64,000 bases of DNA from Chloropicon primus (lineage: Eukaryota). Positions 3,001 to 38,100 of the stretch are shown piece by piece. The notes below the pieces were generated by a model. It did no database searches. It was not told the DNA's origin and worked only from the letters and a program-made list of their open reading frames with translations. The translations under genes were made by a program, and so were the position numbers. The DNA lies in the NCBI GenBank assembly GCA_023205875.1, contig CP060759.1, forward strand, positions 930,001 through 994,000. The letters are read 5' to 3'. Position 1 is the stretch's first letter. Each line of letters begins with the position of its first letter.

Positions 3001-6000
3001 ATTCAGCGCACGGACCAAAACCTTAATGCCATTCTCGACAAAGTAAGAGAGAAAGCCAATGTGGAGGTTATCGCATGTGATGTGAGCAAAGAAGATCATG
3101 TGCGCAATCTCTACACAAAGCAAAACCATCCTTGTGTGGGAATTATACATGCTGCCGGTGTCTTACGAGATGGCCTTGCTGCAAATCTCAACCATACTCA
3201 GGTCCAACAGGTATTTGACCCAAAGATCAGTGGCGCTTTGCATTTGCATCACAACACACTCCTGCAGCCATTGCAGGTATGCATCATGTTCTCCTCCATA
3301 GCTTCACTCTATGGAAACATTGGTCAGACCTCCTACAGTGCAGCAAATACCTATCTTGATACTTTGGCTGCTCTAAGGCAAAACCAAGGCCTTCCTGCGG
3401 TCAGCATACAATGGCCAGCAATATCTGGCATTGGCATGTGGGAAGGTCTATCAAGTGTCCACAAGAAAACAACACCGTTCACGCTGTCTGTCGAGGGAGC
3501 TATCACATCTCTCAATAAGATTGTGAAGGACCTTTCATCCTTCACAATCACAACCGTGACGATTTTACCAAGGTGGATGATCTACGGAACCAGGGAAAAG
3601 AACAAAGCACACATGGCAGCAAAGGCGGATCCAAATGAAATCCAGCGGCAGCCAACAAGCGGAAGAAGCCAGAGCGTCAAATTCACATCTGTAGCTGTGT
3701 TGACTTCCCAAGTGCAAAATACAATTGAGCAAGCAGTCATAGATACTATTGGAGAAACCATTGACACGGAAAGTCCTCTCATGGAAGCAGGAGTCGACTC
3801 GCTTGCTTCATCAGAGCTTATCAACAAGATCAATGATGACATGGGAACCTCTTTGGGGCCCACAATCTTGTTCGACTATCCAACAATTCAGGATCTCACA
3901 CAGCACCTTGTGCAGACCCTCGAAGGACCTGACGCTACAGATCACGCCATTGAGGCTGTGGAGCGCATCCCAAACCATGATCCAATGCATGCTGTGACAA
4001 CAACAATGCTGTCTTCTGCTATCAGATATCCAAACCATACAAATTCAAACCAAAGGTTCTTGAATGTCCTTAACAACCAATCCGAGCTTTGCTCAGTCAC
4101 TCCACTTCAACGGTGGGACCGCATGGATTGGTATTCCTCACAGGGCTATGGGAACGACATCTATGTGCCCTTTGGATACTGGCTTCCAGACCTCTGGACA
4201 TTCCAACCTGATGCACTAAGCATGACTTCCGCAGAATCCCTTTATGTGGACCCACAAGGAAGGAAGCTCCTGGAGGTCACATGGGAGGCCATGTACAACA
4301 CTCCTCTATCTTCAAACAAACATGCCAGAACAAATACAGGTGTTTATGTAGGATGTTGTCAACAAGAATTTCAGCACATGCACTACTATCCTGAGAAAAA
4401 AGCACTCCTTACTGGATATAGCTTCCTTTGTGGTCGTGTTTCTTATGTGATGGGCTTCAAAGGACCATGCATCAGCATAGATACTGCATGTTCCTCCTCG
4501 CTTGCAGCAACTCACTTGGGCAGGACAGCCATTATAGCACATGAATGCGATACAGCAACAATAGCAGGAACAAATATAATGATTGCACCACAAACAACGC
4601 AAGCTATTTGCAATTTGCAAGCCCTTGCCGTGGATGGAAGATGCAAAACCCTTGATGCAACTGCAAATGGATATGGCCGTGCCGAAGCTATTGCTGCCGT
4701 AATCATTGCAAATGCAAACGATACACACACGAACATGCTCAAAATGCCTGTCAACATCGTTGCATCTTTTGTGAACCAAGATGGAAGATCAAGCAGTCTG
4801 ACTGCACCAAATGGGCCATCACAGTCAACACTCATCTCATCTGCTTTGAGGCAAGCAAATCTGAAGCCAGAACAAATCAACCATGTTGTCATGCATGGAA
4901 CAGGAACACCTCTGGGTGACCCAATTGAGGTTGGTGCCCTGGGACAAGCATTCCATTCAGATGACAAAGTTCATATGCTTGCACTTGCTGCAGTCAAGGT
5001 TGCTTTCGGACATACAGAAGGAGCAGCAGGACTCACGGGCCTACTTAGTGCAATGCAGTCGTGTAGCACGTTATGCATTCAACCGGTTACCGCATGCAGA
5101 AACATGAATGTTCATGTGCAGGGTGCAATCAAAGATCATAGAGATGGGCACAAAAGAGTCACTTCTGCAAGGATTCAACAAGGTCCTTGGTCATTCACTT
5201 GTGATGAAAACAATGACAAAGCAATCGCAGGGACAAGCTCGTTTGGCATGAGCGGAGTCAACAGTCACGGGGTTGTTGAAGCAAAACTTGCAGGTCATAC
5301 TTACAATGCGCAGAGTATTGCATGGAACAACAAGCAAGTACTCTTCCCAATGGTTGGGTGTGCATTTGTGAAGGCTTCCTACAAAGCATCTACAAAACAA
5401 CACCAAGTATTTGCGATTCAAATCAAGGACCACAACCTTCTGAGCTACATGGTCATGGGGAAATCCATTTTACCAGGTGCAGGATTCATGGAACTGTCAT
5501 CAGCCTCTGCACGAGCTATGCTCAATCCAAACGTCTTACGTGATCTCAAACCAGTGCTTGCAAAGATATCAATTCCAGCCCCGATGCAGTTGGAACCAAA
5601 CAAACATCAAATGATGCAATGTACGGTGGACACAGTGACCGGACAAGTAGGACTGAAAAGTCACAAAACCTGGAATCTCCAAGCCATATGGAAGAAACCA
5701 GTCAAACACTTGCCAGAGCGCCAAACCACACACCAAGATCAAAACGAGTGGAACAAAGGCATCATGGGTATAATGCACCACAATCAAGCTGCACACACAG
5801 CCAATGCAATTGCAACAGTCGCCAAAACATCAAATGACCTCTATGATTACACCGTCAACCCAGCTGTGGGCGACGCAAATCTACAGCTTGGTGCCGTGGA
5901 AAGCGTGATTCGTTTGGCGAGCCAAGACAATGCTAGTCAAGAAACGCAAGTACCAACGGGTTGCCATGCCTATTACATGGACGACCAGTCAGATGCTCCA

Positions 6001-9000
6001 GCAGCATACACGGCAGTCTGTCAGAATGGCTCCCAAGCTGGCATCTCAAGCCATAGACTAAAAAGTCTATGTGAAGAGATCAACTGTGCCTCAGTTCTCA
6101 ATTTGCAAACCAAAGCAGCATTTAGATCGCAAAGTGCTTTGAATGCAGCCAACAGCCAACAGAAAGTGCAAGAAAAGGACATGCTCTTATCGGCTTTGGT
6201 GTGGTCAGCCTGCTATGCGACCCCTCTGGACTGCGCTGCTCATCAAAATGCAATAATCGCAGGATCAAGGGACGCACAAGAGAATGTGCTTCTCGTGAAA
6301 CTTGGAGACGCGCAATCCAATTTGGAGCATCCTCTCAAGATTGCATGCAGAAATGCAGGAGCTCTCTATTCATCATCTCATGTGGATAGTCCTGAAATGC
6401 AAGAGTACCTGACAAACACCTCAAAGTCGGTCCACGTTGTTTGCCTTGTCTCGCACCAAGCAAATGTTGCAAAGCAACTTGTAGGCCTTGCCAACCTTGT
6501 CAAAGCGGTGAACAAGTCAAACATGGAATCACCTAGTATCACTGTGGTTTTCTTGGATTCACAAACGACCATGAACGTCCAACACAACACCTCAAAAGCA
6601 TTGTGGGGAGCATGCAGGACGATGAGAATGGAGTACCCATCCTTGCAATTGACAACCATTCAAATGGATGCACACATGGACAAGAGTCAGGCAGCTCTTT
6701 ACCTCGTGTCAGAAATCCAAAACAAACATTCAACTGAAAAGGAAGTCATGTACAAGAATGCGACACGATACATCAATACCATTGTGGAGAAGTATCCTTC
6801 TGCATCACAGCATCTCTCCCTCAATCCACATCTGGAAAAGCTCCAGAGAGGATCATATGTTATCACAGGAGGTCTTGGAGGTCTGGGCCTTGTGACCGCG
6901 CAACTTCTTGCAGATATGGGAGCGACAAGCATATCTCTCCTCTCAAGAAGTGGCATCATTCAGCGCACGGACCAAAACCTTAATGCCATTCTCGACAAAG
7001 TAAGAGAGAAAGCCAATGTGGAGGTTATCGCATGTGATGTGAGCAAAGAAGATCATGTGCGCAATCTCTACACAAAGCAAAACCATCCTTGTGTGGGAAT
7101 TATACATGCTGCCGGTGTCTTACGAGATGGCCTTGCTGCAAATCTCAACCATACTCAGGTCCAACAGGTATTTGACCCAAAGATCAGTGGCGCTTTGCAT
7201 TTGCATCACAACACACTCCTGCAGCCATTGCAGGTATGCATCATGTTCTCCTCCATAGCTTCACTCTATGGAAACATTGGTCAGACCTCCTACAGTGCAG
7301 CAAATACCTATCTTGATACATTGGCTGCTCTAAGGCAAAACCAAGGCCTTCCTGCGGTCAGCATACAATGGCCAGCAATATCTGGCATTGGCATGTGGGA
7401 AGGTCTATCAAGTGTCCACAAGAAAACAACACCGTTCACGCTGTCTATCGAGGGAGCTATCACATCTCTCAATAAGATTGTGAAGGACCTTTCATCCTTC
7501 ACAATCACAACCGTGACGATTTTACCAAGGTGGATGATCTACGGAACCAGGGAAAAGAACAAAGCACACATGGCAGCAAAGGCGGATCCAAATGAAATCC
7601 AGCGGCAGCCAACAAGCGGAAGAAGCCAGAGCGTCAAATTCACATCTGTAGCTGTGTTGACTTCCCAAGTGCAAAATACAATTGAGCAAGCAGTCATAGA
7701 TACTATTGGAGAAACCATTGACACGGAAAGTCCTCTCATGGAAGCAGGAGTCGACTCGCTTGCTTCATCAGAGCTTATCAACAAGATCAATGATGACATG
7801 GGAACCTCTTTGGCGCCCACAATCTTGTTCGACTATCCAACAATTCAGGATCTCACACAGCACCTTGTGCAGACCCTCAAAGGACCTGACGCTACAGATC
7901 ACGCCATTGAGGCTGTGGAGCGCATCCCAAACCATGATCCAATGCATGCTGTGACAACAACAATGCTGTCTTCTGCTATCAGATATCCAAACCATACAAA
8001 TTCAAACCAAAGGTTCTTGAATGTCCTTAACAACCAGTCCGAGCTTTGCTCAGTCACTCCACTTCAACGGTGGGACCGCATGGATTGGTATTCCTCACAG
8101 GGCTATGGGAACGACATCTATGTGCCCTTTGGATACTGGCTTCCAGACCTCTGGACCTTCCAACCTGATGCACTAAGCATGACTTCCGCAGAATCCCTTT
8201 ATGTGGACCCACAAGGAAGGAAGCTCCTGGAGGTCACATGGGAGGCCATGTACAACACTCCTCTATCTTCAAACAAACATGCCAGAACAAATACAGGTGT
8301 TTATGTAGGATGTTGTCAACAAGACTTTCAGCACATGCACTACTATCCTGAGAAAAAAGCACTCCTTACTGGATATAGCTTCCTTTGTGGTCGTGTTTCT
8401 TATGTGATGGGCTTCAAAGGACCATGCATCAGCATAGATACTGCATGTTCCTCCTCGCTTGCAGCAACTCACTTGGGCAGGACAGCCATTATAGCACATG
8501 AATGTGATACAGCAACAATAGCAGGAACAAATATAATGATTGCACCACAAACAACGCAAGCTATTTGCAATTTGCAAGCCCTTGCCGTGGATGGAAGATG
8601 CAAAACCCTTGATGCAACTGCAAATGGATATGGCCGTGCCGAAGCTATTGCTGCCGTAATCATTGCAAATGCAAACGATACACAAACGAACATGCTCAAA
8701 ATGCCTGTCAACATCGTTGCATCTTTTGTGAACCAAGATGGAAGATCAAGCAGTCTGACTGCACCAAATGGGCCATCACAGTCAACACTCATCTCATCTG
8801 CTTTGAGGCAAGCAAATCTGAAGCCAGAACAAATCAACCATGTTGTCATGCATGGAACAGGAACACCTCTGGGTGACCCAATTGAGGTTGGTGCCCTGGG
8901 ACAAGCATTCCATTCAGATGACAAAGTTCATATGCTTGCACTTGCTGCAGTCAAGGTTGCTTTTGGACATACAGAAGGAGCAGCAGGACTCACGGGCCTA

Positions 9001-12000
9001 CTTAGTGCAATGCAGTCGTGTAGCACGTTATGCATTCAACCGGTTACCGCATGCAGAAACATGAATGTTCATGTGCAGGGTGCAATCAAAGATCATAGAG
9101 ATGGGCACAAAAGAGTCACTTCTGCAAGGATTCAACAAGGTCCTTGGTCATTCACTTGTGATGAAAACAATGACAAAGCAATCGCAGGGACAAGCTCGTT
9201 TGGCATGAGCGGAGTCAACAGTCACGGGGTTGTTGAAGCAAAACTTGCAGGCCATACTTACAATGCGCAGAGTATTGCATGGAACAACAAGCAAGTACTC
9301 TTCCCAATGGTTGGGTGTGCATCTGTGAAGGCTTCCTACAAAGCACCTACAAAACAACACCAAGCATTTGCGATTCAAATCAAGGACCACAACCTGCTCG
9401 ACCACATGGTCATGGGGAAATCCATTTTACCAGGTGCAGGATTCATGGAACTGTCATCAGCCTCTGCACGAGCTATGCTTAATCCAAACGTCTTACGTGA
9501 TCTCAAACCAGTGCTTGCAAAGATATCAATTCCAGCCCCGATGCAGTTGGAACCAAACAAACATCAAATGATGCAATGTACGGTGGACACAGTGACCGGA
9601 CAAGTAGGACTGAAAAGTCACAAAACCTGGAATCTCCAAGCCATATGGAAGAAACCAGTCAAACACTTGCCAGAGCGCCAAACCACACACGAAGATCAAA
9701 ACGAGTGGAACAAAGGCATCATGGGTATAATGCACCACAATCAAGCTGCACACACAGCCAATGCAATTGCAACAGTCGCCAAAACATCAAATGACCTCTA
9801 TGATTACACCGTCAACCCAGCTGTGGGCGACGCAAATCTACAGCTTGGTGCCGTGGAAAGCGTGATTCGTTTGGCGAGCCAAGACAATGCTAGTCAAGAA
9901 ACGCAAGTACCAACGGGTTGCCATGCCTATTACATGGGCGACCAGTCAGATGCTCCAGCAGCATACACGGCAGTCTGTCAGAATGGCTCCCAAGCTGGCA
10001 TCTCAAGCCATAGACTAAAAAGTCTATGTGAAGAGATCAACTGTGCCTCAGTTCTCAATTTGCAAACCAAAGCAGCATTTAGATTGCAAAGTGCTTTGAA
10101 TGCAGCCAACAGCCAACAGAAAGTGCAAGAAAAGGACATGCTCTTATCGGCTTTGGTGTGGTCAGCCTGCTATGCGACCCCTCTGGACTGCGCTGCTCAT
10201 CAAAATGCAATAATCGCAGGATCAAGGGACGCACAAGAGAATGTGCTTCTCGTGAAACTTGGAGACGCGCAATCCAATTTGGAGCATCCTCTCAAGATTG
10301 CATGCAGAAATGCAGGAGCTCTCTATTCATCATCTCATGTGGATAGTCCTGAAATGCAAGAGTACCTGACAAACACCTCAAAGTCGGTCCACGTTGTTTG
10401 CCTTGTCTCGCACCAAGCAAATGTTGCAAAGCAACTTGTAGGCCTTGCCAACCTTGTCAAAGCGGTGAACAAGTCAAACATGGAATCACCTAGTATCACT
10501 GTGGTTTTCTTGGATTCACAAACGACCATGAACGTCCAACACAACACCTCAAAAGCATTGTGGGGAGCATGCAGGACGATGAGAATGGAGTACCCATCCT
10601 TGCAATTGACAACCATTCAAATGGATGCACACATGGACAAGAGTCAGGCAGCTCTTTACCTCGTGTCAGAAATCCAAAACAAACATTCAACTGAAAAGGA
10701 AGTCATGTACAAGAATGCGACACGATACATCAATACCATTGTGGAGAAGTATCCTTCTGCATCACAGCATCTCTCCCTCAATCCACATCTGGAAAAGCTC
10801 CAGAGAGGATCATATGTTATCACAGGAGGTCTTGGAGGTCTGGGTCTTGTGACCGCGCAACTTCTTGCAGATATGGGAGCGACAAGCATATCTCTCCTCT
10901 CAAGAAGTGGCATCATTCAGCGCACGGACCAAAACCTTAATGCCATTCTCGACAAAGTAAGAGAGAAAGCCAATGTGGAGGTTATCGCATGTGATGTGAG
11001 CAAAGAAGATCATGTGCGCAATCTCTACACAAAGCAAAACCATCCTTGTGTGGGAATTATACATGCTGCCGGTGTCTTACGAGATGGCCTTGCTGCAAAT
11101 CTCAACCATACTCAGGTCCAACAGGTATTTGACCCAAAGATCAGTGGCGCTTTGCATTTGCATCACAACACACTCCTGCAGCCATTGCAGGTATGCATCA
11201 TGTTCTCCTCCATAGCTTCACTCTATGGAAGCATTGGTCAGACCTCCTACAGTGCAGCAAATACCTATCTTGATACTTTGGCTGCTCTAAGGCAAAACCA
11301 AGGCCTTCCTGCGGTCAGCATACAATGGCCAGCAATATCTGGCATTGGCATGTGGGAAGGTCTATCAAGTGTCCACAAGAAAACAACACCGTTCACGCTG
11401 TCTGTCGAGGGAGCTATCACATCTCTCAATAAGATTCTGAAGGACCTTTCATCCTTCACAATCACAACCGTGACGATTTTACCAAGGTGGATGATCTACG
11501 GAACCAGGGAAAAGAACAAAGCACACATGGCAGCAAAGGCGGATCCAAATGAAATCCAGCGGCAGCCAACAAGCGGAAGAAGCCAGAGCGTCAAATTCAC
11601 ATCTGTAGCTGTGTTGACTTCCCAAGTGCAAAATACAATTGAGCAAGCAGTCATAGATACTATCGGAGAAACCATTGACACGGAAAGTCCTCTCATGGAA
11701 GCAGGAGTCGACTCGCTTGCTTCATCAGAGCTTATCAACAAGATCAATGATGACATGGGAACCTCTTTGGGGCCCACAATCTTGTTCGACTATCCAACAA
11801 TTCAGGATCTCACACAGCACCTTGTGCAGACCCTCAAAGGACCTGACGCTACAGATCACGCCATTGAGGCTGTGGAGCGCATCCCAAACCATGATCCAAT
11901 GCATGCTGTGACAACAACAATGCTGTCTTCTGCTATCAGATATCCAAACCATACAAATTCAAACCAAAGGTTCTTGAATGTCCTTAACAACCAATCCGAG

Positions 12001-15000
12001 CTTTGCGCAGTCACTCCACTTCAACGGTGGGACCGCATGGATTGGTATTCCTCACAGGGCTATGGGAACGACATCTATGTGCCCTTTGGATACTGGCTTC
12101 CAGACCTCTGGACATTCCAACCTGATGCACTAAGCATGACTTCCGCAGAATCCCTTTATGTGGACCCACAAGGAAGGAAGCTCCTGGAGGTCACATGGGA
12201 GGCCATGTACAACACTCCTCTATCTTCAAACAAACATGCCAGAACAAATACAGGTGTTTATGTAGGATGTATGTACACAGAGTATCCACATATCCTGAAG
12301 GGGGCAAATATGACAAACAATGCTGGTACAGGTACTGGAAGCGGCATTAGCTTCCTTTGTGGTCGTGTTTCTTATGTGATGGGCTTCAAAGGACCATGCA
12401 TCAGCATAGATACTGCATGTTCCTCCTCGCTTGCAGCAACTCACTTGGGCAGGACAGCCATTATAGCACATGAATGTGATACAGCAACAATAGCAGGAAC
12501 AAATATAATGATTGCACCACAAACAACGCAAGCTATTTGCAATTTGCAAGCCCTTGCCGTGGATGGAAGATGCAAAACCCTTGATGCAACTGCAAATGGA
12601 TATGGCCGTGCCGAAGCTATTGCTGCCGTAATCATTGCAAATGCAAACGATACATACACGAACATGCTCAAAATGCCTGTCAACATCGTTGCATCTTTTG
12701 TGAACCAAGATGGAAGATCAAGCAGTCTGACTGCACCAAATGGGCCATCACAGTCAACACTCATCTCATCTGCTTTGAGGCAAGCAAATCTGAAGCCAGA
12801 ACAAATCAACCATGTTGTCATGCATGGAACAGGAACACCTCTGGGTGACCCAATTGAGGTTGGTGCCCTGGGACAAGCATTCCATTCAGATGACAAAGTT
12901 CATATGCTTGCACTTGCTGCAGTCAAGGTTGCTTTCGGACATACAGAAGGAGCAGCAGGACTCACGGGCCTACTTAGTGCAATGCAGTCGTGTAGCACGT
13001 TATGCATTCAACCGGTTACCGCATGCAGAAACATGAATGTTCATGTGCAGGGTGCAATCAAAGATCATAGAGATGGGCACAAAAGAGTCACTTCTGCAAG
13101 GATTCAACAAGGTCCTTGGTCATTCACTTGTGATGAAAACAATGACAAAGCAATCGCAGGGACAAGCTCGTTTGGCATGAGCGGAGTCAACAGTCACGGG
13201 GTTGTTGAAGCAAAACTTGCAGGCCATACTTACAATGCGCAGAGTATTGCATGGAATAACAGGCAAGTACTCTTCCCAATGGTTGGGTGTGCATCTGTGA
13301 AGGCTTCCTACAAAGCACCTACAAAACAACACCAAGCATTTGCGATTCAAATCAAGGACCACAACCTGCTCGACCACATGGTCATGGGGAAATCCATTTT
13401 ACCAGGTGCAGGATTCATGGAACTGTCATCAGCCTCTGCACGAGCTATGCTTAATCCAAACGTCTTACGTGATCTCAAACCAGTGCTTGCAAAGATATCA
13501 ATTCCAGCCCCGATGCAGTTGGAACCAAACAAACATCAAATGATGCAATGTACGGTGGACACAGTGACCGGACAAGTAGGACTGAAAAGTCACAAAACCT
13601 GGAATCTCCAAGCCATATGGAAGAAACCAGTCAAACACTTGCCAGAGCGCCAAACCACACACGAAGATCAAAACGAGTGGAACAAAGGCATCATGGGTAT
13701 AATGCACCACAATCAAGCTGCACACACAGCCAATGCAATTGCAACAGTCGCCAAAACATCAAATGACCTCTATGATTACACCGTCAACCCAGCTGTGGGC
13801 GACGCAAATCTACAGCTTGGTGCCGTGGAAAGCGTGATTCGTTTGGCGAGCCAAGACAATGCTAGTCAAGAAACGCAAGTACCAACGGGTTGCCATGCCT
13901 ATTACATGGGCGACCAGTCAGATGCTCCAGCAGCATACACGGCAGTCTGTCAGAATGGCTCCCAAGCTGGCATCTCAAGCCATAGACTAAAAAGTCTATG
14001 TGAAGAGATCAACTGTGCCTCAGTTCTCAATTTGCAAACCAAAGCAGCATTTAGATTGCAAAGTGCTTTGAATGCAGCCAACAGCCAACAGAAAGTGCAA
14101 GAAAAGGACATGCTCTTATCGGCTTTGGTGTGGTCAGCCTGCTATGCGACCCCTCTGGACTGCGCTGCTCATCAAAATGCAATAATCGCAGGATCAAGGG
14201 ACGCACAAGAGAATGTGCTTCTCGTGAAACTTGGAGACGCGCAATCCAATTTGGAGCATCCTCTCAAGATTGCATGCAGAAATGCAGGAGCTCTCTATTC
14301 ATCATCTCATGTGGATAGTCCTGAAATGCAAGAGTACCTGACAAACACCTCAAAGTCGGTCCACGTTGTTTGCCTTGTCTCGCACCAAGCAAATGTTGCA
14401 AAGCAACTTGTAGGCCTTGCCAACCTTGTCAAAGCGGTGAACAAGTCAAACATGGAATCACCTAGTATCACTGTGGTTTTCTTGGATTCACAAACGACCA
14501 TGAACGTCCAACACAACACCTCAAAAGCATTGTGGGGAGCATGCAGGACGATGAGAATGGAGTACCCATCCTTGCAATTGACAACCATTCAAATGGATGC
14601 ACACATGGACAAGAGTCAGGCAGCTCTTTACCTCGTGTCAGAAATCCAAAACAAACATTCAACTGAAAAGGAAGTCATGTACAAGAATGCGACACGATAC
14701 ATCAATACCATTGTGGAGAAGTATCCTTCTGCATCACAGCATCTCTCCCTCAATCCACATCTGGAAAAGCTCCAGAGAGGATCATATGTTATCACAGGAG
14801 GTCTTGGAGGTCTGGGTCTTGTGACCGCGCAACTTCTTGCAGATATGGGAGCGACAAGCATATCTCTCCTCTCAAGAAGTGGCATCATTCAGCGCACGGA
14901 CCAAAACCTTAATGCCATTCTCGACAAAGTAAGAGAGAAAGCCAATGTGGAGGTTATCGCATGTGATGTGAGCAAAGAAGATCATGTGCGCAATCTCTAC

Positions 15001-18000
15001 ACAAAGCAAAACCATCCTTGTGTGGGAATTATACATGCTGCCGGTGTCTTACGAGATGGCCTTGCTGCAAATCTCAACCATACTCAGGTCCAACAGGTAT
15101 TTGACCCAAAGATCAGTGGCGCTTTGCATTTGCATCACAACACACTCCTGCAGCCATTGCAGGTATGCATCATGTTCTCCTCCATAGCTTCACTCTATGG
15201 AAGCATTGGTCAGACCTCCTACAGTGCAGCAAATACCTATCTTGATACATTGGCTGCTCTAAGGCAAAACCAAGGCCTTCCTGCGGTCAGCATACAATGG
15301 CCAGCAATATCTGGCATTGGCATGTGGGAAGGTCTATCAAGTGTCCACAAGAAAACAACACCATTTACTTTGGCAGTGACAGATGTTGTGAAGGTGATGA
15401 AACATCTTGTTTCAAGTGTCCCAATTCCTGCACCAAACATTGCTATGCTGCCACAAAGCCTCGTTCACGACGTAAATGTTGAGAGGAAGCAAAACGATAA
15501 AAACATGGACCCTGTTGTTGATACAAAGGATCCGTCTTGGTATGAATTGCCTTCTCAATGGAAGCAGTTGCAAGTGACTAAGCTCTCCAACAACTTCAGT
15601 GAAGCAACTTCGATGCAGCATCTCAACACATTAGATTGTGAAGAAAATGAAGTGGTAGTACGGGTCATCTATGCAGGAGTCAATGCTAGTGATGTCAACT
15701 TCAGTGCTGGAAAGTACCATGGAAGTGAAGCAGCAGCAACGAAAGCTCTCCCATTTGCAGCTGGACTTGAAGGTGTAGGTCTTGTGGTTAAGAAAGGAAG
15801 CAAAACAAAGATCTCTATTGGGAGTCCCGTGGCATGCATGGCACCTGGTTGTTATTCAGACTTCCTCACAATCAAGGAAAGCAGTCTACTTACTATCTCT
15901 GAGATACAAATTGAGACAGTTGCACTGCTAACATCTGGACTCACAGCAACGCTTGCGCTTTCTCAAGTCGGCCAAATGAAAAATGGTGGTGAAACCGTCC
16001 TAGTTACAGCAGCCGCTGGTGGCACCGGTCAATTTGCTGTTCAGCTTGCAAAACTGGCAGGTAACCGTGTTATAGCAACATGCAGCAACCCAAGAAAGAA
16101 AGATCTTCTTGAAGAACTCGGAGCAGAACGTGTCATCAACTACAAATTGGAAGATGTCCAAAAAGTTCTCAAAGAAGAATACCCACGTGGCATTTCCCTT
16201 GTATATGATGGAGTTGGAGGGAAATTGCTTCAAAACATTCTTCCAGCTGTGTCGCCACTGGGTAGAATTGTCACCATTGGCGCCGTGTCAACATACCAAG
16301 CAGATGAAGAATCTGCGTTGAAACAGGAGCACATGCAAAGTTTGTACCAACGTGGAGTGTCCATCTTGGGCTTTTACTTGCCCGCATACAAGAGTCAGTT
16401 CCAAAAGTACCTCAATCAACTCTGTGACCTTCATCGCACTAAGAAACTTAGGGTACACGTGGATGTCAAGAAACGATATTGCGGGGCTGAAATGGCCCCT
16501 GATGCTGTCAAAGATCTCCACTCTGGAAAGACTCAGGGGAAGGTTGTTGTGCAAATACCACAACATGTGCCAAAAACATTCAAAGACCTTTCTGCTCAGC
16601 TCAAAACTAATTACAGCCTGAACACGAATGCAGTACCAAAAAGCAAAGACAGCAACAAAATGCAAGTTGACGTTGTCTCCCTGACTTCCCAAGTGCAAAA
16701 AACAATTGAGCAAGCAGTCATAGATACTATTGGAGAAACCATTGACACGGAAAGTCCTCTCATGGAAGCAGGAGTCGACTCGCTTGCTTCATCAGAGCTT
16801 ATCAACAAGATCAATGATGACATGGGAACCTCTTTGGCGCCCACAATCTTGTTCGACTATCCAACAATTCAGGATCTCACACAGCACCTTGTGCAGACCC
16901 TCAAAGGACCTGACGCTACAGATCACGCCATTGAGGCTGTGGAGCGCATCCCAAACCATGATCCAATGCATGCTGTGACAACAACAATGCTGTCTTCTGC
17001 TATCAGATATCCAAACCATACAAATTCAAACCAAAGGTTCTTGAATGTCCTTAACAACCAATCCGAGCTTTGCGCAGTCACTCCACTTCAACGGTGGGAC
17101 CGCATGGATTGGTATTCCTCACAGGGCTATGGGAACGACATCTATGTGCCCTTTGGATACTGGCTTCCAGACCTCTGGACATTCCAACCTGATGCACTAA
17201 GCATGACTTCCGCAGAATCCCTTTATGTGGACCCACAAGGAAGGAAGCTCCTGGAGGTCACATGGGAGGCCATGTACAACACTCCTCTATCTTCAAACAA
17301 ACATGCCAGAACAAATACAGGTGTTTATGTAGGATGCATGTCCACAGAGTACCCACATATCCTGAAGGGGGCAAACATGGCAAACAATGCTGGTACAGGT
17401 ACTGGAAGCGGCATTAGCTTCCTTTGTGGTCGTGTTTCTTATGTGATGGGCTTCAAAGGACCATGCATCAGCATAGATACTGCATGTTCCTCCTCCCTTG
17501 CAGCAACTCACTTGGGCAGGACAGCCATTATAGCACATGAATGTGATACAGCAACAATAGCAGGAACAAATATAATGATTGCACCACAAACAACGCAAGC
17601 TATTTGCAATTTGCAAGCCCTTGCCGTGGATGGAAGATGCAAAACCCTTGATGCAACTGCAAATGGATATGGCCGTGCCGAAGCTATTGCTGCCGTAATC
17701 ATTGCAAATGCAAACGATACATACACGAACATGCTCAAAATGCCTGTCAACATCGCTGCATCTTTTGTGAACCAAGATGGAAGATCAAGCAGTCTGACTG
17801 CACCAAATGGGCCATCACAGTCAACACTCATCTCATCTGCTTTGAGGCAAGCAAATCTGAAGCCAGAACAAATCAACCATGTTGTCATGCATGGAACAGG
17901 AACACCTCTGGGTGACCCAATTGAGGTTGGTGCCCTGGGACAAGCATTCCATTCAGATGACAAAGTTCATATGCTTGCACTTGCTGCAGTCAAGGTTGCT

Positions 18001-21000: not shown

Positions 21001-24000
21001 AACCAAAGGTTCTTGAATGTCCTTAACAACCAATCCGAGCTTTGCGCAGTCACTCCACTTCAACGGTGGGACCGCATGGATTGGTATTCCTCACAGGGCT
21101 ATGGGAACGACATCTATGTGCCCTTTGGATACTGGCTTCCAGACCTCTGGACATTCCAACCTGATGCACTAAGCATGACTTCCGCAGAATCCCTTTATGT
21201 GGACCCACAAGGAAGGAAGCTCCTGGAGGTCACATGGGAGGCCATGTACAACACTCCTCTATCTTCAAACAAACATGCCAGAACAAATACAGGTGTTTAT
21301 GTAGGATGCATGTCCACAGAGTACCCACATATCCTGAAGGGGGCAAACATGGCAAACAATGCTGGTACAGGTACTGGAAGCGGCATTAGCTTCCTTTGTG
21401 GTCGTGTTTCTTATGTGATGGGCTTCAAAGGACCATGCATCAGCATAGATACTGCATGTTCCTCCTCCCTTGCAGCAACTCACTTGGGCAGGACAGCCAT
21501 TATAGCACATGAATGTGATACAGCAACAATAGCAGGAACAAATATAATGATTGCACCACAAACAACGCAAGGTGTTTGCAATTTGCAAGCCCTTGCCGTG
21601 GATGGAAGATGCAAAACCCTTGATGCAACTGCAAATGGATATGGCCGTGCCGAAGCTATTGCTGCCGTAATCATTGCAAATGCAAACGATACACACACGA
21701 ACATGCTCAAAATGCCTGTCAACATCGTTGCATCTTTTGTGAACCAAGATGGAAGATCAAGCAGTCTGACTGCACCAAATGGGCCATCACAGTCAACACT
21801 CATCTCATCTGCTTTGAGGCAAGCAAATCTGAAGCCAGAACAAATCAACCATGTTGTCATGCATGGAACAGGAACACCTCTGGGTGACCCAATTGAGGTT
21901 GGTGCCCTGGGACAAGCATTCCATTCGGATGACAAAGTTCATATGCTTGCACTTGCTGCAGTCAAGGTTGCTTTCGGACATACAGAAGGAGCAGCAGGAC
22001 TCACGGGCCTACTTAGTGCAATGCAGTCGTGTAGCACGTTATGCATTCAACCGGTTACCGCATGCAGAAACATGAATGTTCATGTGCAGGGTGCAATCAA
22101 AGATCATAGAGATGGGCACAAAAGAGTCACTTCTGCAAGGATTCAACAAGGTCCTTGGTCATTCACTTGTGATGAAAACAATGACAAAGCAATCGCAGGG
22201 ACAAGCTCGTTTGGCATGAGCGGAGTCAACAGTCACGGGGTTGTTGAAGCAAAACTTGCAGGCCATACTTACAATGCGCAGAGTATTGCATGGAATAACA
22301 GGCAAGTACTCTTCCCAATGGTTGGGTGTGCATTTGTGAAGGCTTCCTACAAAGCATCTACAAAACAACACCAAGTATTTGCGATTCAAATCAAGGACCA
22401 CAACCTGCTCGACCACATGGTCATGGGGAAATCCATTTTACCAGGTGCAGGATTCATGGAACTGTCATCAGCCTCTGCACGAGCTATGCTCAATCCAAAC
22501 GTCTTACGTGATCTCAAACCAGTGCTTGCAAAGATATCAATTCCAGCCCCGATGCAGTTGGAACCAAACAAACATCAAATGATGCAATGTACGGTGGACA
22601 CAGTGACCGGACAAGTAGGACTGAAAAGTCACAAAACCTGGAATCTCCAAGCCATATGGAAGAAACCAGTCAAACACTTGCCAGAGCGCCAAACCACACA
22701 CGAAGATCAAAACGAGTGGAACAAAGGCATCATGGGTATAATGCACCACAATCAAGCTGCACACACAGCCAATGCAATTGCAACAGTCGCCAAAATATCA
22801 AATGACCTCTATGATTACACCGTCAACCCAGCTGTGGGCGACGCAAATCTACAGCTTGGTGCCGTGGAAAGCGTGATTCGTTTGGTGAGCCAAGACAATG
22901 CTAGTCAAGAAACGCAAGTACCAACGGGTTGCCATGCCTATTACATGGGCGACCAGTCAGATGCTCCAGCAGCATACACGGCAGTCTGTCAGAATGGCTC
23001 CCAAGCTGGCATCTCAAGCCATAGACTAAAAAGTCTATGTGAAGAGATCAACTGTGCCTCAGTTCTCAATTTGCAAACCAAAGCAGCATTTAGATCGCAA
23101 AGTGCTTTGAATGCAGCCAACAGCCAACAGAAAGTGCAAGAAAAGGACATGCTCTTATCGGCTTTGGTGTGGTCAGCCTGCTATGCGACCCCTCTGGACT
23201 GCGCTGCTCATCAAAATGCAATAATCGCAGGATCAAGGGACGCACAAGAGAATGTGCTTCTCGTGAAACTTGGAGACGCGCAATCCAATTTGGAGCATCC
23301 TCTCAAGATTGCATGCAGAAATGCAGGAGCTCTCTATTCATCATCTCATGTGGATAGTCCTGAAATGCAAGAGTACCTGACAAACACCTCAAAGTCGGTC
23401 CACGTTGTTTGCCTTGTCTCGCACCAAGCAAATGTTGCAAAGCAACTTGTAGGCCTTGCCAACCTTGTCAAAGCGGTGAACAAGTCAAACATGGAATCAC
23501 CTAGTATCACTGTGGTTTTCTTGGATTCACAAACGACCATGAACGTCCAACACAACACCTCAAAAGCATTGTGGGGAGCATGCAGGACGATGAGAATGGA
23601 GTACCCATCCTTGCAATTGACAACCATTCAAATGGATGCACACATGGACAAGAGTCAGGCAGCTCTTTACCTCGTGTCAGAAATCCAAAACAAACATTCA
23701 ACTGAAAAGGAAGTCATGTACAAGAATGCGACACGATACATCAATACCATTGTGGAGAAGTATCCTTCTGCATCACAGCATCTCTCCCTCAATCCACATC
23801 TGGAAAAGCTCCAGAGAGGATCATATGTTATCACAGGAGGTCTTGGAGGTCTGGGTCTTGTGACCGCGCAACTTCTTGCAGATATGGGAGCGACAAGCAT
23901 ATCTCTCCTCTCAAGAAGTGGCATCATTCAGCGCACGGACCAAAACCTTAATGCCATTCTCGACAAAGTAAGAGAGAAAGCCAATGTGGAGGTTATCGCA

Positions 24001-27000
24001 TGTGATGTGAGCAAAGAAGATCATGTGCGCAATCTCTACACAAAGCAAAACCATCCTTGTGTGGGAATTATACATGCTGCCGGTGTCTTACGAGATGGCC
24101 TTGCTGCAAATCTCAACCATACTCAGGTCCAACAGGTATTTGACCCAAAGATCAGTGGCGCTTTGCATTTGCATCACAACACACTCCTGCAGCCATTGCA
24201 GGTATGCATCATGTTCTCCTCCATAGCTTCACTCTATGGAAGCATTGGTCAGACCTCCTACAGTGCAGCAAATACCTATCTTGATACTTTGGCTGCTCTA
24301 AGGCAAAACCAAGGCCTTCCTGCGGTCAGCATACAATGGCCAGCAATATCTGGCATTGGCATGTGGGAAGGTCTATCAAGTGTCCACAAGAAAACAACAC
24401 CATTTACTTTGGCAGTGACAGATGTTGTGAAGGTGATGAAACATCTTGTTTCAAGTGTCCCAATTCCTGCACCAAACATTGCTATGCTGCCACAAAGCCT
24501 CGTTCACGACGTAAATGTTGAGAGGAAGCAAAACGATAAAAACATGGACCCTGTTGTTGATACAAAGGATCCGTCTTGGTATGAATTGCCTTCTCAATGG
24601 AAGCAGTTGCAAGTGACTAAGCTCTCCAACAACTTCAGTGAAGCAACTTCGATGCAGCATCTCAACACATTAGATTGTGAAGAAAATGAAGTGGTAGTAC
24701 GGGTCATCTATGCAGGAGTCAATGCTAGTGATGTCAACTTCAGTGCTGGAAAGTACCATGGAAGTGAAGCAGCAGCAACGAAAGCTCTCCCATTTGCAGC
24801 TGGACTTGAAGGTGTAGGTCTTGTGGTTAAGAAAGGAAGCAAAACAAAGATCTCTATTGGGAGTCCCGTGGCATGCATGGCACCTGGTTGTTATTCAGAC
24901 TTCCTCACAATCAAGGAAAGCAGTCTACTTACTATCTCTGAGATACAAATTGAGACAGTTGCACTGCTAACATCTGGACTCACAGCAACGCTTGCGCTTT
25001 CTCAAGTCGGCCAAATGAAAAATGGTGGTGAAACCGTCCTAGTTACAGCAGCCGCTGGTGGCACCGGTCAATTTGCTGTTCAGCTTGCAAAACTGGCAGG
25101 TAACCGTGTTATAGCAACATGCAGCAACCCAAGAAAGAAAGATCTTCTTGAAGAACTCGGAGCAGAACGTGTCATCAACTACAAATTGGAAGATGTCCAA
25201 AAGTTCTCAAAGAAGAATACCCACGTGGCATTTCCCTTGTATATGATGGAGTTGGAGGGAAATTGCTTCAAAACATTCTTCCAGCTGTGTCGCCACTGGG
25301 TAGAATTGTCACCATTGGCGCCGTGTCAACATACCAAGCAGATGAAGAATCTGCGTTGAAACAGGAGCACATGCAAAGTTTGTACCAACGTGGAGTGTCC
25401 ATCTTGGGCTTTTACTTGCCCGCATACAAGAGTCAGTTCCAAAAGTACCTCAATCAACTCTGTGACCTTCATCGCACTAAGAAACTTAGGGTACACGTGG
25501 ATGTCAAGAAACGATATTGCGGGGCTGAAATGGCCCCTGATGCTGTCAAAGATCTCCACTCTGGAAAGACTCAGGGGAAGGTTGTTGTGCAAATACCACA
25601 ACATGTGCCAAAAACATTCAAAGACCTTTCTGCTCAGCTCAAAACTAATTACAGCCTGAACACGAATGCAGTACCAAAAAGCAAAGACAGCAACAAAATG
25701 CAAGTTGACGTTGTCTCCCTGACTTCCCAAGTGCAAAAAACAATTGAGCAAGCAGTCATAGATACTATTGGAGAAACCATTGACACGGAAAGTCCTCTCA
25801 TGGAAGCAGGAGTCGACTCGCTTGCTTCATCAGAGCTTATCAACAAGATCAATGATGACATGGGAACCTCTTTGGCGCCCACAATCTTGTTCGACTATCC
25901 AACAATTCAGGATCTCACACAGCACCTTGTGCAGACCCTCAAAGGACCTGACGCTACAGATCACGCCATTGAGGCTGTGGAGCGCATCCCAAACCATGAT
26001 CCAATGCATGCTGTGACAACAACAATGCTGTCTTCTGCTATCAGATATCCAAACCATACAAATTCAAACCAAAGGTTCTTGAATGTCCTTAACAACCAAT
26101 CCGAGCTTTGCGCAGTCACTCCACTTCAACGGTGGGACCGCATGGATTGGTATTCCTCACAGGGCTATGGGAACGACATCTATGTGCCCTTTGGATACTG
26201 GCTTCCAGACCTCTGGACATTCCAACCTGATGCACTAAGCATGACTTCCGCAGAATCCCTTTATGTGGACCCACAAGGAAGGAAGCTCCTGGAGGTCACA
26301 TGGGAGGCCATGTACAACACTCCTCTATCTTCAAACAAACATGCCAGAACAAATACAGGTGTTTATGTAGGATGCATGTCCACAGAGTACCCACATATCC
26401 TGAAGGGGGCAAACATGGCAAACAATGCTGGTACAGGTACTGGAAGCGGCATTAGCTTCCTTTGTGGTCGTGTTTCTTATGTGATGGGCTTCAAAGGACC
26501 ATGCATCAGCATAGATACTGCATGTTCCTCCTCGCTTGCAGCAACTCACTTGGGCAGGACAGCCATTATAGCACATGAATGTGATACAGCAACAATAGCA
26601 GGAACAAATATAATGATTGCACCACAAACAACGCAAGGTGTTTGCAATTTGCAAGCCCTTGCCGTGGATGGAAGATGCAAAACCCTTGATGCAACTGCAA
26701 ATGGATATGGCCGTGCCGAAGCTATTGCTGCCGTAATCATTGCAAATGCAAACGATACATACACGAACATGCTCAAAATGCCTGTCAACATCGTTGCATC
26801 TTTTGTGAACCAAGATGGAAGATCAAGCAGTCTGACTGCACCAAATGGGCCATCACAGTCAACACTCATCTCATCTGCTTTGAGGCAAGCAAATCTGAAG
26901 CCAGAACAAATCAACCATGTTGTCATGCATGGAACAGGAACACCTCTGGGTGACCCAATTGAGGTTGGTGCCCTGGGACAAGCATTCCATTCAGATGACA

Positions 27001-30000
27001 AAGTTCATATGCTTGCACTTGCTGCAGTCAAGGTTGCTTTCGGACATACAGAAGGAGCAGCAGGACTCACGGGCCTACTTAGTGCAATGCAGTCGTGTAG
27101 CACGTTATGCATTCAACCGGTTACCGCATGCAGAAACATGAATGTTCATGTGCAGGGTGCAATCAAAGATCATAGAGATGGGCACAAAAGAGTCACTTCT
27201 GCAAGGATTCAACAAGGTCCTTGGTCATTCACTTGTGATGAAAACAATGACAAAGCAATCGCAGGGACAAGCTCGTTTGGCATGAGCGGAGTCAACAGTC
27301 ACGGGGTTGTTGAAGCAAAACTTGCAGGCCATACTTACAATGCGCAGAGTATTGCATGGAACAACAAGCAAGTACTCTTCCCAATGGTTGGGTGTGCATT
27401 TGTGAAGGCTTCCTACAAAGCATCTACAAAACAACACCAAGTATTTGCGATTCAAATCAAGGACCACAACCTGCTCGACCACATGGTCATGGGGAAATCC
27501 ATTTTACCAGGTGCAGGATTCATGGAACTGTCATCAGCCTCTGCACGAGCTATGCTCAATCCAAACGTCTTACGTGATCTCAAACCAGTGCTTGCAAAGA
27601 TATCAATTCCAGCCCCGATGCAGTTGGAACCAAACAAACATCAAATGATGCAATGTACGGTGGACACAGTGACCGGACAAGTAGGACTGAAAAGTCACAA
27701 AACCTGGAATCTCCAAGCCATATGGAAGAAACCAGTCAAACACTTGCCAGAGCGCCAAACCACACACGAAGATCAAAACGAGTGGAACAAAGGCATCATG
27801 GGTATAATGCACCACAATCAAGCTGCACACACAGCCAATGCAATTGCAACAGTCGCCAAAACATCAAATGACCTCTATGATTACACCGTCAACCCAGCTG
27901 TGGGCGACGCAAATCTACAGCTTGGTGCCGTGGAAAGCGTGATTCGTTTGGTGAGCCAAGACAATGCTAGTCAAGAAACGCAAGTACCAACGGGTTGCCA
28001 TGCCTATTACATGGGCGACCAGTCAGATGCTCCAGCAGCATACACGGCAGTCTGTCAGAATGGCTCCCAAGCTGGCATCTCAAGCCATAGACTAAAAAGT
28101 CTATGTGAAGAGATCAACTGTGCCTCAGTTCTCAATTTGCAAACCAAAGCAGCATTTAGATCGCAAAGTGCTTTGAATGCAGCCAACAGCCAACAGAAAG
28201 TGCAAGAAAAGGACATGCTCTTATCGGCTTTGGTGTGGTCAGCCTGCTATGCGACCCCTCTGGACTGCGCTGCTCATCAAAATGCAATAATCGCAGGATC
28301 AAGGGACGCACAAGAGAATGTGCTTCTCGTGAAACTTGGAGACGCGCAATCCAATTTGGAGCATCCTCTCAAGATTGCATGCAGAAATGCAGGAGCTCTC
28401 TATTCATCATCTCATGTGGATAGTCCTGAAATGCAAGAGTACCTGACAAACACCTCAAAGTCGGTCCACGTTGTTTGCCTTGTCTCGCACCAAGCAAATG
28501 TTGCAAAGCAACTTGTAGGCCTTGCCAACCTTGTCAAAGCGGTGAACAAGTCAAACATGGAATCACCTAGTATCACTGTGGTTTTCTTGGATTCACAAAC
28601 GACCATGAACGTCCAACACAACACCTCAAAAGCATTGTGGGGAGCATGCAGGACGATGAGAATGGAGTACCCATCCTTGCAATTGACAACCATTCAAATG
28701 GATGCACACATGGACAAGAGTCAGGCAGCTCTTTACCTCGTGTCAGAAATCCAAAACAAACATTCAACTGAAAAGGAAGTCATGTACAAGAATGCGACAC
28801 GATACATCAATACCATTGTGGAGAAGTATCCTTCTGCATCACAGCATCTCTCCCTCAATCCACATCTGGAAAAGCTCCAGAGAGGATCATATGTTATCAC
28901 AGGAGGTCTTGGAGGTCTGGGTCTTGTGACCGCGCAACTTCTTGCAGATATGGGAGCGACAAGCATATCTCTCCTCTCAAGAAGTGGCATCATTCAGCGC
29001 ACGGACCAAAACCTTAATGCCATTCTCGACAAAGTAAGAGAGAAAGCCAATGTGGAGGTTATCGCATGTGATGTGAGCAAAGAAGATCATGTGCGCAATC
29101 TCTACACAAAGCAAAACCATCCTTGTGTGGGAATTATACATGCTGCCGGTGTCTTACGAGATGGCCTTGCTGCAAATCTCAACCATACTCAGGTCCAACA
29201 GGTATTTGACCCAAAGATCAGTGGCGCTTTGCATTTGCATCACAACACACTCCTGCAGCCATTGCAGGTATGCATCATGTTCTCCTCCATAGCTTCACTC
29301 TATGGAAGCATTGGTCAGACCTCCTACAGTGCAGCAAATACCTATCTTGATACTTTGGCTGCTCTAAGGCAAAACCAAGGCCTTCCTGCGGTCAGCATAC
29401 AATGGCCAGCAATATCTGGCATTGGCATGTGGGAAGGTCTATCAAGTGTCCACAAGAAAACAACACCATTTACTTTGGCAGTGACAGATGTTGTGAAGGT
29501 GATGAAACATCTTGTTTCAAGTGTCCCAATTCCTGCACCAAACATTGCTATGCTGCCACAAAGCCTCGTTCACGACGTAAATGTTGAGAGGAAGCAAAAC
29601 GATAAAAACATGGACCCTGTTGTTGATACAAAGGATCCGTCTTGGTATGAATTGCCTTCTCAATGGAAGCAGTTGCAAGTGACTAAGCTCTCCAACAACT
29701 TCAGTGAAGCAACTTCGATGCAGCATCTCAACACATTAGATTGTGAAGAAAATGAAGTGGTAGTACGGGTCATCTATGCAGGAGTCAATGCTAGTGATGT
29801 CAACTTCAGTGCTGGAAAGTACCATGGAAGTGAAGCAGCAGCAACGAAAGCTCTCCCATTTGCAGCTGGACTTGAAGGTGTAGGTCTTGTGGTTAAGAAA
29901 GGAAGCAAAACAAAGATCTCTATTGGGAGTCCCGTGGCATGCATGGCACCTGGTTGTTATTCAGACTTCCTCACAATCAAGGAAAGCAGTCTACTTACTA

Positions 30001-35165: not shown

Positions 35166-38100
35166 ATGGACGAGAGACCGTGCTCGACAACGCCCACGCC
35201 GAAGCACGACTTCAGGGTGTCGATCAAGCAAATCGATTACTACACGACCAAGCCGGCCCCGGACCTTGACATCTGCTACTCGCCGTTCACGGGGCAAGAG
35301 GTCCGAGTCGCACCCGTGGTGAGAGTGTTTGGCTCCACTCCTGCCGGGCAGACGGTGTGCTTGCACTTGCACAAGATCCTCCCCTACCTGTACGTGAGTT
35401 ACAAGGCCAGCCCCACCACGAGCGCCTCGGAGCACGGCATTTACCTCCGGAAGCTGGCCCACTCCATCGACGCCGCGCTGCACTTGAGCCAGCACGCACA
35501 CAAGAAGGCGGACAGCGGCGCTTCGTCCCTCAAGGCTCGATTTGTCCACACGTGCACCCTAGTGAGGGCCTTGCCGTTCTACGGGTACCACCAGAACGAA
35601 GAGTTTTTCGCCAAGATATACGTGTACGATCCAAAGGACTTGGGCAAGGTCGCCAACGCCCTTCTCAGCGGCGCGGTCATGGGGCAAGCATTCCAGCCCT
35701 TTGAGGCCCACGTGCCCTACTTGCTCAAGTTCAAGACAGATTACAACTTGCACGGCATGGAATACATCAACCTTTCCGAGGTCCTCCTTCGCGAGCCTTT
35801 GCCTGAGGACGAGGGTGAGGGAGGTCGGCAGAGGTTTCCCTGTTCCGAGAGCCTTGTTGAGCCTTACCCCGTTTGGACTCGGGACAACGTCCCACGGCAA
35901 TGGCTTTGTCAGAAGGGGGGCAGCCTTGGAGCCAAGGAGGCGCACTGCGACATCGAAGCCGACGCTTTTGGAGACTACGTGCGAAACCCTCGCTCCGTGC
36001 CCGCGATAAGCTTGCAGGAAGCGGATTCGGACATCCAGATGGTCCCATCCTTGGCGCCGATCTGGGCGGAGGAGAGGCAAAGGAGCAGGAAAATGGGGGT
36101 GCCGTTCCCGCCCAAAGCAGCGGCGTCCCCAGCGAGGAACGAGGACTTTCTCCACCGCAAGTTCAGGCAGAAGTTCAGAGGCGCGGTGGAAGAGAATCTG
36201 AGCCAAAGGAAAGACTCGGCCCCGGGCGCTCAAGGCTCTCAGGATCCTGACGCGGAGCTTTCCCTCAAGCTGACCCAGGCCGCGAATGAGGTCAAGAGCC
36301 CGGACAGGGTGAGGTGGGAGGGCCTGTCCCCCACCTCGCAGAGTCATTTGACGACCCAAGACGCGGATGACGTGCTGCTGGAGACCTTGCATTGGATGCA
36401 AGAGAGCAACGATGCCAGGGCCATCGGCGGCGATGAGATTTGGAACGGGAACATCGGCGTCCACGAGCGACCTGAAGGAGACCTGGAGGAGTACATGAAC
36501 TCGTCTCAAAAGGAGTGTGATGACATTGTGCACAGCACACTTCAATCTGCGGAGGCCGCTGGTGCATCTTCACCCGGGGGCTGGCATGGCTTGGACGAGA
36601 ACTTTGCGTCGACGACTGGCACGAGGAGCGGGGCGGAGGCTCGGTCCGAGTCTGACGATTTCGAGCCCCTGCACCTGGAGCTGACGGTGGAGGGCAGCAG
36701 CAGGAGTGACTCGGACGAGAGGGTGGAGGACCGCCTCGAAGATGCCCTGGAGATGCAGGGGCGCGCGGCCTCGGAGGAAGAGCCATCGTCGTCACTGATG
36801 GCGTTTCGGCCTATCACTTCTGCTCCGTCCTACGCGGATGTCAAGTCGTCCATGCGTCGTCTGGAGCTTCCAGATGTCGTTTACACGGAACCCTTCTTCT
36901 CCGATTCGAGGGATGTGCCGAAAAGGCCGACTTGTTCTGCTGGCCTCGAATTTAAGCTGAAGTCGGCCTCCTCCCTGGATTTGCAGGGATTCTCGTGCAA
37001 CACCAGGAGCGGAAGCGAGTACCTGGAGATGCTCGCGCCGCGGGTCGGGGGCGAACGAGGTGGCGACAGGTTGTTTTTGCTTGCTTCCAAGAAGCTTCCT
37101 CCGAGCTGCGAGGAAGTGAATTCTTGGCTTGCGAAGCGGAAAGGTCGCGGCGGATCCAAAAACGTCCACTTGCCCGAAATGGATTTCAGAATGGATCCAA
37201 ACACGGGCCAGTTCATCGATAAGAACGACCAAGGGGAGTTGCATTCCTTGGAGAACACTCAAAGGCAGAGCGCAAGCTTTGTTGCGACGCCGTCAGACCA
37301 CTTGGAGGCCAGGCCTGCTTCGCCAAAGTACGATGAGCAGGTCCCCTTTCACTTGACCGGCAGCCATTTTTACGACGACGACGACGACGACGTAACCGCA
37401 GAAAACGTTGAAAGCAACACCCCTGGCAAGCAACGCGCAGAGTCGCTTGAGATGCAAGATTTGTCTTCGGGAATGGGGGATCAGAGCGGGGCGTATGGGC
37501 CCGTGGGGAGAAGCGCGAGGAGGGAGTCAGCCAGAAGCGACGCGACCGCGCCAGGAAACGGGGTCTCTCAGATCACGCCTCCTTCCCCATTCAAGGAGGA
37601 GGGCAAGGGAAATACGCCATCCAGTCAGGCGGGCTACACTTTCAAGCACCTGGATGAAACGGAGACGCTGCACGCGTGTCCCAAGGTCCTGTCCATTGAA
37701 ATCTTTGCGGAAAACCGAGGCACCAAGCTGCCCGACCCCAAGTACGACGCTGTGAAAGCCATCGCGTTGGTCTACGAAAAACAGAAGAGCTGCAGCGGTT
37801 CCGGGGCCGGCAACGTGCTCAACCTGCTTGTCAGCGCGGAAGCGTCCCTGAAGACCTTCTTGTGCTCCATGAAGAGGAAGCATGCCCTCTCCGAGGATAC
37901 GGAATATTTCGTGGTCGAAAGTGAGGTTGACCTCATCAAGATGGCCGCGGGCAAGATTGTTCGGGCTGATCCTGACATAGTCATGGGCTACGAGATCCAG
38001 TCAGAGAGTGTGGGGTATTTGTGCGACAGGCTGTCCCTGCTGCAGCCCGGGGAATCATTCCTGCGTTTGATCTCCAGGTCCCCAAGCATCCCGAGTAACA

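Follow-up and report, generated by a model that had tools for sequence, protein, structure and literature searches.

A ketosynthase loop that follows the state of the upstream dehydratase in a giant modular polyketide synthase of Chloropicon primus

How can ketosynthase (KS) domains of nearly identical sequence handle different chains arriving from the module upstream? The question is raised by a 64,000 nt stretch of Chloropicon primus DNA (assembly GCA_023205875.1, contig CP060759.1, positions 930,001–994,000, forward strand), here termed the window, with coordinates counted from its first nucleotide. Positions 1–31916 on the (+) strand, where all features of this gene lie, represent the 3' part of a giant modular polyketide synthase (PKS). 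It has seven near-identical modules (M1–M7) in the order KS, dehydratase (DH), ketoreductase (KR) and acyl carrier protein (ACP), and in three of them (M4, M6 and M7) an enoyl reductase (ER) is situated 3' of the KR. Two of the seven KSs, KS2 and KS3, carry a different segment, which an earlier reading of the letters (the sequence-only reading) had proposed to track the chemistry of the upstream module.

The segment is CQQEFQHMHYYPEKKALLTGY in KS2 (positions 4357–4419) and CQQDFQHMHYYPEKKALLTGY in KS3 (positions 8314–8376), as determined by translation and codon alignment; both are 63 nt and encode 21 aa. The corresponding loop in KS1, KS4, KS5, KS6 and KS7 is 78 nt, M[Y/S]TEYPHILKGANM[A/T]NNAGTGTGSGI. 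KS2 and KS3 are also the only KSs of the window with Ser in place of Ala at residue 41 (A41S, positions 4093–4095 and 8050–8052), which changes ELCA to ELCS. The 5 aa deficit, the ELCS motif and their restriction to KSs behind DHs with an LLSY motif are as the sequence-only reading had them. The loop variant was correctly described there, but the functional motif begins one codon earlier, with the Cys at 4354, so that the first four residues read CCQQ in one type and CM[Y/S]T in the other. Counted from this Cys, the short loops are at positions 4354–4419 (CCQQ at 4354–4365) and 8311–8376, and the long loops are at 382–462 (KS1, CMYT), 12268–12348 (KS4, CMYT), 17335–17415 (KS5, CMST), 21307–21387 (KS6, CMST) and 26373–26453 (KS7, CMST).

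Outside the loop the seven KSs are 99.2–99.8% identical over 1257 nt, with 0–4 aa differences per 419, and no KS character other than the loop and A41S sets KS2 and KS3 apart from the rest in the window. The two loop types are codon-aligned at E/D-F/Y and at H, where they differ synonymously. Sequence comparison rules out that the short loop is a frameshifted or an inverted copy of the long loop, and it has no further 13-mer match anywhere in the window. The Cys-His-His residues are kept in all KSs, including KS2 (positions 3997–5310); the presence of the catalytic Cys and His rules out a non-elongating KS0. The loop is the most variable part of the KS, with lengths of 17–51 among 1490 KSs. 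A Gly located nine residues before a conserved Arg, found in 1149 of 1490 other KSs, is missing from the short loop.

The state of the upstream DH corresponds to the loop type. DH1 (positions 1486–1491), upstream of KS2, and DH2 (positions 5443–5448), upstream of KS3, have Ser-Tyr in place of Asp-His, i.e., LLSY, and the catalytic His is lost. DH3 (positions 9400–9405, upstream of the long-loop KS4) through DH7 have LLDH. The missing residue is the His of the DH motif HxxxGxxxxP, and its loss is the sole basis on which DH1 and DH2 are predicted to be inactive. Both KSs behind the His-less DHs have the short loop, and KS4–KS7 have the long loop; a perfect match within the window, with 6 junctions, has a chance probability of 1/15. 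The module upstream of KS1 is outside the window. KS4 and KS6 directly follow modules with DH and KR but without ER, and KS5 and KS7 follow ER modules. Two further junctions come from P0121, a 3391 aa protein found by homolog search at 97% identity. Its domain order is GNAT-ACP-KS, a DH with a divergent, His-less N-terminal half, KR, ACP, KS, an intact DH, KR, ACP and KS. Behind the His-less DH, the KS carries ELCS together with a third loop, CQQDFQKNIHHMTDPGKQILASI, which starts CCQQDFQ, and KS3 of P0121, behind the intact DH and KR without ER, has ELCA and the long loop. The expectation that upstream modules would follow the same pattern is thus borne out at both junctions.

The match between loop and DH His is 8 of 8 junctions, with a chance probability of 1/56, or 1/21 if KS2 and KS3 are counted once. 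All three modules feeding CCQQ KSs have a KR and, as predicted from sequence, no working DH. These KRs have the catalytic Tyr and an LRD motif, which marks them as presumably B-type. The His-less DH half of P0121 differs in sequence from the lesion in DH1 and DH2, and the two CCQQ loop types, that of P0121 and that of KS2 and KS3, diverge after six residues. The intact-DH module of P0121 has Q593 and N1106, as in M1 and M2; since this background occurs with an intact DH and a long loop, it is the DH state, rather than the background, that the loop type follows.

P0121 probably represents the 5' end of the gene in the window; less probably, it derives from a close strain or is a paralogue. At its end, a shift of one base takes the reading into another frame of the module sequence. 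Besides P0121, no close relative is present among the best 120 matches of each homolog search or the best 150 of another. Two P0121 alleles, K723 and L917 (window positions 6125 and 6706), occur in none of the seven modules of the window; in contigs from sequencing runs the allele at 6706 is seen in 4 of 4 and that at 6125 in 2 of 4. This pattern suggests either more upstream modules or a strain difference.

The location of the segment is informative. In cis-acyltransferase (cis-AT) PKSs, four gatekeeping positions (1–4) have been assigned to the loop at the KS dimer interface (Ray et al. 2024, PMC11321453). KSs with VMYH take enoyl chains, Met at position 2 (Met-2) being modeled to clash with a β-hydroxyl, and KSs with TNGQ take D-β-hydroxy chains; exchange of VMYH for TNGQ in PikKS3 changed a product ratio from 148 to 3 (PMC11321453). 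The gatekeeping principle is thus published and tested by mutagenesis, also according to the available part of a preprint (bioRxiv 2025.09.26.678738). Positions 1–4 were read as the four residues following the GVYVG strand, from profiles built on homolog matches. The start of the window loop coincides with them: in cis-AT KSs, these profile columns hold VMYH in 13 cases and TNGQ in 32. Met-2 is present in KS1, KS4, KS5, KS6, KS7 and P0121 KS3, but none of these has the full VMYH: the motif is CMYT or CMST, with Tyr-3 in three of the six and His-4 in none. The CCQQ KSs have neither TNGQ nor Asn-2, and only Gln-4 is in common. The segment had been presented as a newly isolated determinant; this does not hold, as it is the published cis-AT dimer-interface loop, in which positions 1–4 have already been swapped (PMC11321453). 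That the loop lines the substrate tunnel, as had been expected, is supported by homology to these KSs.

Met-2 follows upstream chemistry in a wider set, in counts that are not independent of kinship. Among cis-AT KSs (290 of 291 classified), Met-2 is found in 83 of 99 after DH and KR, 2 of 128 after KR only and 6 of 26 after ER. In a hand-picked set of 56 AT-less proteins of eukaryote type, with 161 of 230 KSs classifiable, it is found in 40/67, 3/28 and 0/35, respectively, most of these Met-2 KSs belonging to one clade. Newly retrieved proteins give 34/44 after DH and KR vs 1/65 after KR only where an AT is upstream, and 56/104 vs 5/100 where there is no AT.

A tree made with the loop removed places all KSs of the window within a 77-row clade (FastTree support 94, unstarred). 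In this clade all 35 foreign KSs after DH and KR have Met-2 and the four after ER have Ile, as counted from the tree. Among 40 listed neighbors in the loop-removed comparison, the 12 nearest all have Met-2 and two have CMYTE itself. As the nearest relatives have Met-2, the scaffold descends from a Met-2 lineage, and CCQQ either arose in situ or is a remnant of an older KS whose body was overwritten. The AlphaFold models built for KS2 and KS4, as monomers without substrate, are confident (AF2 pLDDT 91.0 and 92.6), and the KS2 model has the KS fold and matches solved KSs. The long loop is modeled as two confident helices (pLDDT 93–95). In the model of the short loop the second helix is lost, with a pLDDT of 63 at residues 131–140. 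Modeling of both loop types, which the sequence-only reading had called for, thus predicts a structural difference between them.

We consider it fairly probable (about 70%) that the divergent segment represents the gatekeeper loop at the KS dimer interface and that selection kept the loops distinct while gene conversion homogenized the rest. Recurrent gene conversion would have made the modules near-identical. A Met-2 loop converted in behind a dead DH would have stalled the assembly line, and because of this non-Met loops would have persisted behind dead DHs, on KSs that receive a predicted β-hydroxyacyl chain and lack the Met-2 that would exclude the β-hydroxyl. The CM[Y/S]T loops would accept enoyl or saturated chains. 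The CCQQ loops, shorter and with one helix lost in the model, would open the substrate tunnel to D-β-hydroxy chains, supplied by B-type KR modules with a dead DH. The predicted chain over the window would be OH, OH, alkene, CH2, alkene, CH2 and CH2, followed by release. A change of Tyr-3 to Ser in KS5–KS7 may be a relaxation. A stronger proposal, possible but held only tentatively, is that the loop of 21–26 residues, aided by one other residue at most, suffices as a portable β-hydroxy/enoyl switch while the KS scaffold stays unchanged. A green alga would have reinvented this switch in a new form, CCQQ, and retained it in the face of gene conversion. Such a switch would succeed where the VMYH-to-TNGQ swap only relaxed selectivity.

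Several observations weigh against selection on a gatekeeper loop. The PikKS3 four-residue swap lowered selectivity without inverting it (PMC11321453). CCQQ differs from TNGQ, and no other CCQQ start occurs among 975 KSs scored. Algal Met-2 is largely the trait of one clade, and a test on independent pairs gives a median p = 1 with 9 pairs. Three KSs of the 77-row clade whose upstream DH was scored as His-less or absent (P0027_3, P0164_3 and P0066_5) keep Met-2, although at least two of these may be annotation errors. KS5 and KS7 keep Met-2 after ER modules, whereas other eukaryote-type KSs after ER do so in 0 of 35. The proposed distinction between β-hydroxy and dehydrated or reduced substrates is consequently upheld at all 8 junctions, as far as DH state can be predicted, for OH vs non-OH, and the loop does not separate enoyl from reduced chains. 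KS2 and KS3 share eight linked codons with the upstream DH-KR, and the number of junctions is small; the two KSs are thus not fully independent, and there may be only two CCQQ events. Finally, six of 17 near-identical foreign KS pairs with known, differing upstream classes keep similar or identical loops, and three same-class pairs have divergent loops.

The eight linked codons lead to a different explanation, that a block of dead DH, KR, ACP and CCQQ KS was copied as one recombination unit and the loop is a neutral remnant of an older KS. The two DH-dead units alone share these codons (five non-synonymous and three synonymous), KSs are known to move with upstream domains in PKS evolution, the loop is the most variable part of the KS, and the mycolactone PKS shows that KSs of near-identical sequence need not discriminate between substrates (available part of PMC2569948). 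A fresh tandem duplication of the DH-dead unit is ruled out by 9 synonymous codon differences between the two units, as many as in other pairs (3–11 among 15 unit pairs). Copying as a block is unlikely overall, since about 2.9 kb of homogenized, mosaic sequence separates DH from loop and a neutral island of 63–69 nt within 99% identity would be expected to be converted away. In P0121, moreover, both the CCQQ loop and the DH lesion that accompanies it are of another sequence, and the background alleles recur beside an intact DH and a long loop. It is less likely still that the loop reads another cue, such as chain length, distal hydroxyls, ACP docking or kinetics, and that CCQQ KSs are simply early. 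All three are in the 5' half of the gene, the conserved Gly is lost, and the divergence of the CCQQ loops after six residues would suggest tuning to short chains in P0121 and longer ones in KS2 and KS3. However, the long-loop KS3 of P0121 and KS1 of the window interleave with the CCQQ KSs, and position 2 is the residue linked by experiment to β-chemistry (PMC11321453).

That modules or loop variants were mis-ordered or invented in a collapsed repeat is very improbable. The array has 4–5 kb repeats at 99% identity and there are two 1-nt losses of a sequencing type, but the short loop is in frame and codon-aligned, occurs in two copies that differ by E/D, and is related to a loop of P0121. Among short-read contigs, those of runs X2, X4 and X5 end at the two edges of the loop (4355 and 4420), and X2, X3 and X4 have contigs that join the divergent DH half of P0121 (loose end 5603, matched by eye). 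Logan contigs from 8 runs have only the long loop and the intact-DH allele and none covers the short loop or LLSY allele of the window; as such contigs drop minor variants, this neither confirms nor denies them. A metagenome scan with a 23-nt KS pattern gave 0 matches.

Among known systems the closest are the cis-AT KSs with VMYH or TNGQ, which have the same loop and columns, Met-2 after an active DH, and a non-Met residue with Gln-4 after a KR without working DH. The window PKS differs in being eukaryotic and AT-less, in its motifs CM[Y/S]T and CCQQ, in keeping Met-2 after ER and in changing the whole 21–26 aa loop and its length on a 99% identical KS body. Near-isogenic pairs also occur in actinomycete cis-AT PKSs, with bodies 90–98% and loops 33–52% identical that differ with upstream chemistry (P0018, LMYH/TNGQ; P0100 and P0107, VITQ/VMYD; P0088). 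A total of 2820 within-protein KS pairs were compared. In 58 foreign pairs the bodies reach 90% identity or more; 11 of the 17 mentioned above have loops less than 60% identical. The window is the most extreme case in the set (body 99.0–99.5%, loop 15–26%). The description of the locus as a near-isogenic experiment is thus apt for KS bodies that are 99% identical, with the reservation that KS2 and KS3 have a part-shared haplotype and that similar bacterial pairs exist. The cis-AT bacterial proteins P0018, P0088, P0100, P0106, P0107, P0217 and P0230 have near-identical KS pairs with loops that vary according to upstream chemistry, and represent a natural loop-swap set. Another Chloropicon primus PKS, P0047, has four near-identical KSs with an IEHM loop; all three junctions seen follow DHs with His changed to Tyr, a parallel to the DH lesion in the window.

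The mycolactone PKS resembles the window in KSs about 99% identical at the DNA level, mosaic domain replacement and active and inactive DH copies. The small KS differences there are uncorrelated with substrate, unlike the divergent loop island here (both from the available part of PMC2569948), and a permissive, homogenized KS of that type does not agree with the co-segregation at 8 of 8 junctions. GRINS, in the part of the source available, have more than 500 bp duplicated at more than 80% identity and mean absolute GC and TA skews both above 0.15 (PMC8256042). The window PKS has the long duplications and the TA skew (0.159 over 1–31000), but its mean absolute GC skew of 0.094 rules out this assignment.

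The gene is probably of the chlorophyte trans-AT type, as judged by repeated KS-DH-KR-(ER)-ACP modules with a terminal release domain, algal KS grouping and eukaryotic context. AT families have no match in the window pieces or in P0121, and the closest named KS relatives in the loop-less comparison, among the matches listed, include chlorophytes. PKSs of this type are likewise of MDa size and AT-less, with near-identical modules and algal-type KS grouping; the available part of that study does not discuss substrate-linked KS loops, and the window ER, PTGR3/ZADH2-like and 3' of the KR, is a further difference (Shelest 2015, PMC4661987). No description of substrate-linked KS loops in algal PKSs was found in the literature searched, whose coverage excludes most subscription journals, and the available part of the PKZILLA preprint has nothing on this loop. 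The ER of M4 is at positions 15541–16560, after the KR, with copies in M6 (about 24580–25598) and M7 (about 29646–30665). Stand-alone PTGR3/ZADH2 (E 3e-62) is a better match to it than the CurK ER (6e-20); its identity to other PKS ERs is only 26–37%, and the order KR then ER is found at 3 of 94 junctions among the PKSs compared. A housekeeping alkenal reductase has apparently been taken up into a PKS module here, perhaps late, and a late arrival could account for Met-2 in KS5 and KS7.

The PKS is read from two open reading frames (ORFs). The first, open at its 5' end, covers M1–M6 (positions 1–25359). The second (25263–31916) continues with the remaining ER and ACP of M6, then M7 (KS-DH-KR-ER-ACP) and a terminal thioesterase or alpha-beta hydrolase (31128–31781). 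The frame is broken at 25199–25202, where an A-run is one base shorter than in M4 and M7, probably an assembly error. This 1-nt loss and that at the end of P0121, both probably sequencing errors, fragment the annotated gene. The GC content of the PKS is 46–47% vs 51–62% in the flank, where eukaryotic genes are present (REV3, MRE11, AGPase and photolyase family). Together with the chlorophyte KS relatives, these genes point to a green alga as host. Low-GC PKS regions within a genome of 57.5% GC are reported in the available part of a paper on one picoplanktonic chlorophyte (PMC6731263). The REV3 (DNA polymerase zeta) ORF, positions 35166–41330, has a 364 aa intein-like insert at 39120–40211, directly after YGD. 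Its first residue is Ser and it ends in His-Asn followed by Thr; the Pfam Intein_splicing match (E 2e-4) is below the family cut-off. A limited literature search on such inserts turned up no mention of polymerase zeta. A SAP-domain protein at positions 42890–48097 has 19 KH-domain matches, near-exact tandem repeats among them.

The locus is a variant of already known KS gatekeeping, and its functional reading is likely correct. As near-isogenic pairs are also found in bacteria and the principle is known, the degree of surprise is moderate. Gatekeeping by KSs is a constraint on PKS engineering, and in published work exchange of four residues loosened selectivity without inverting it; natural KS pairs that differ only in the loop and one residue make the sufficiency of the whole loop directly testable. 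The position-2 Met rule is extended to eukaryotic algal PKSs, which aids prediction of their products.

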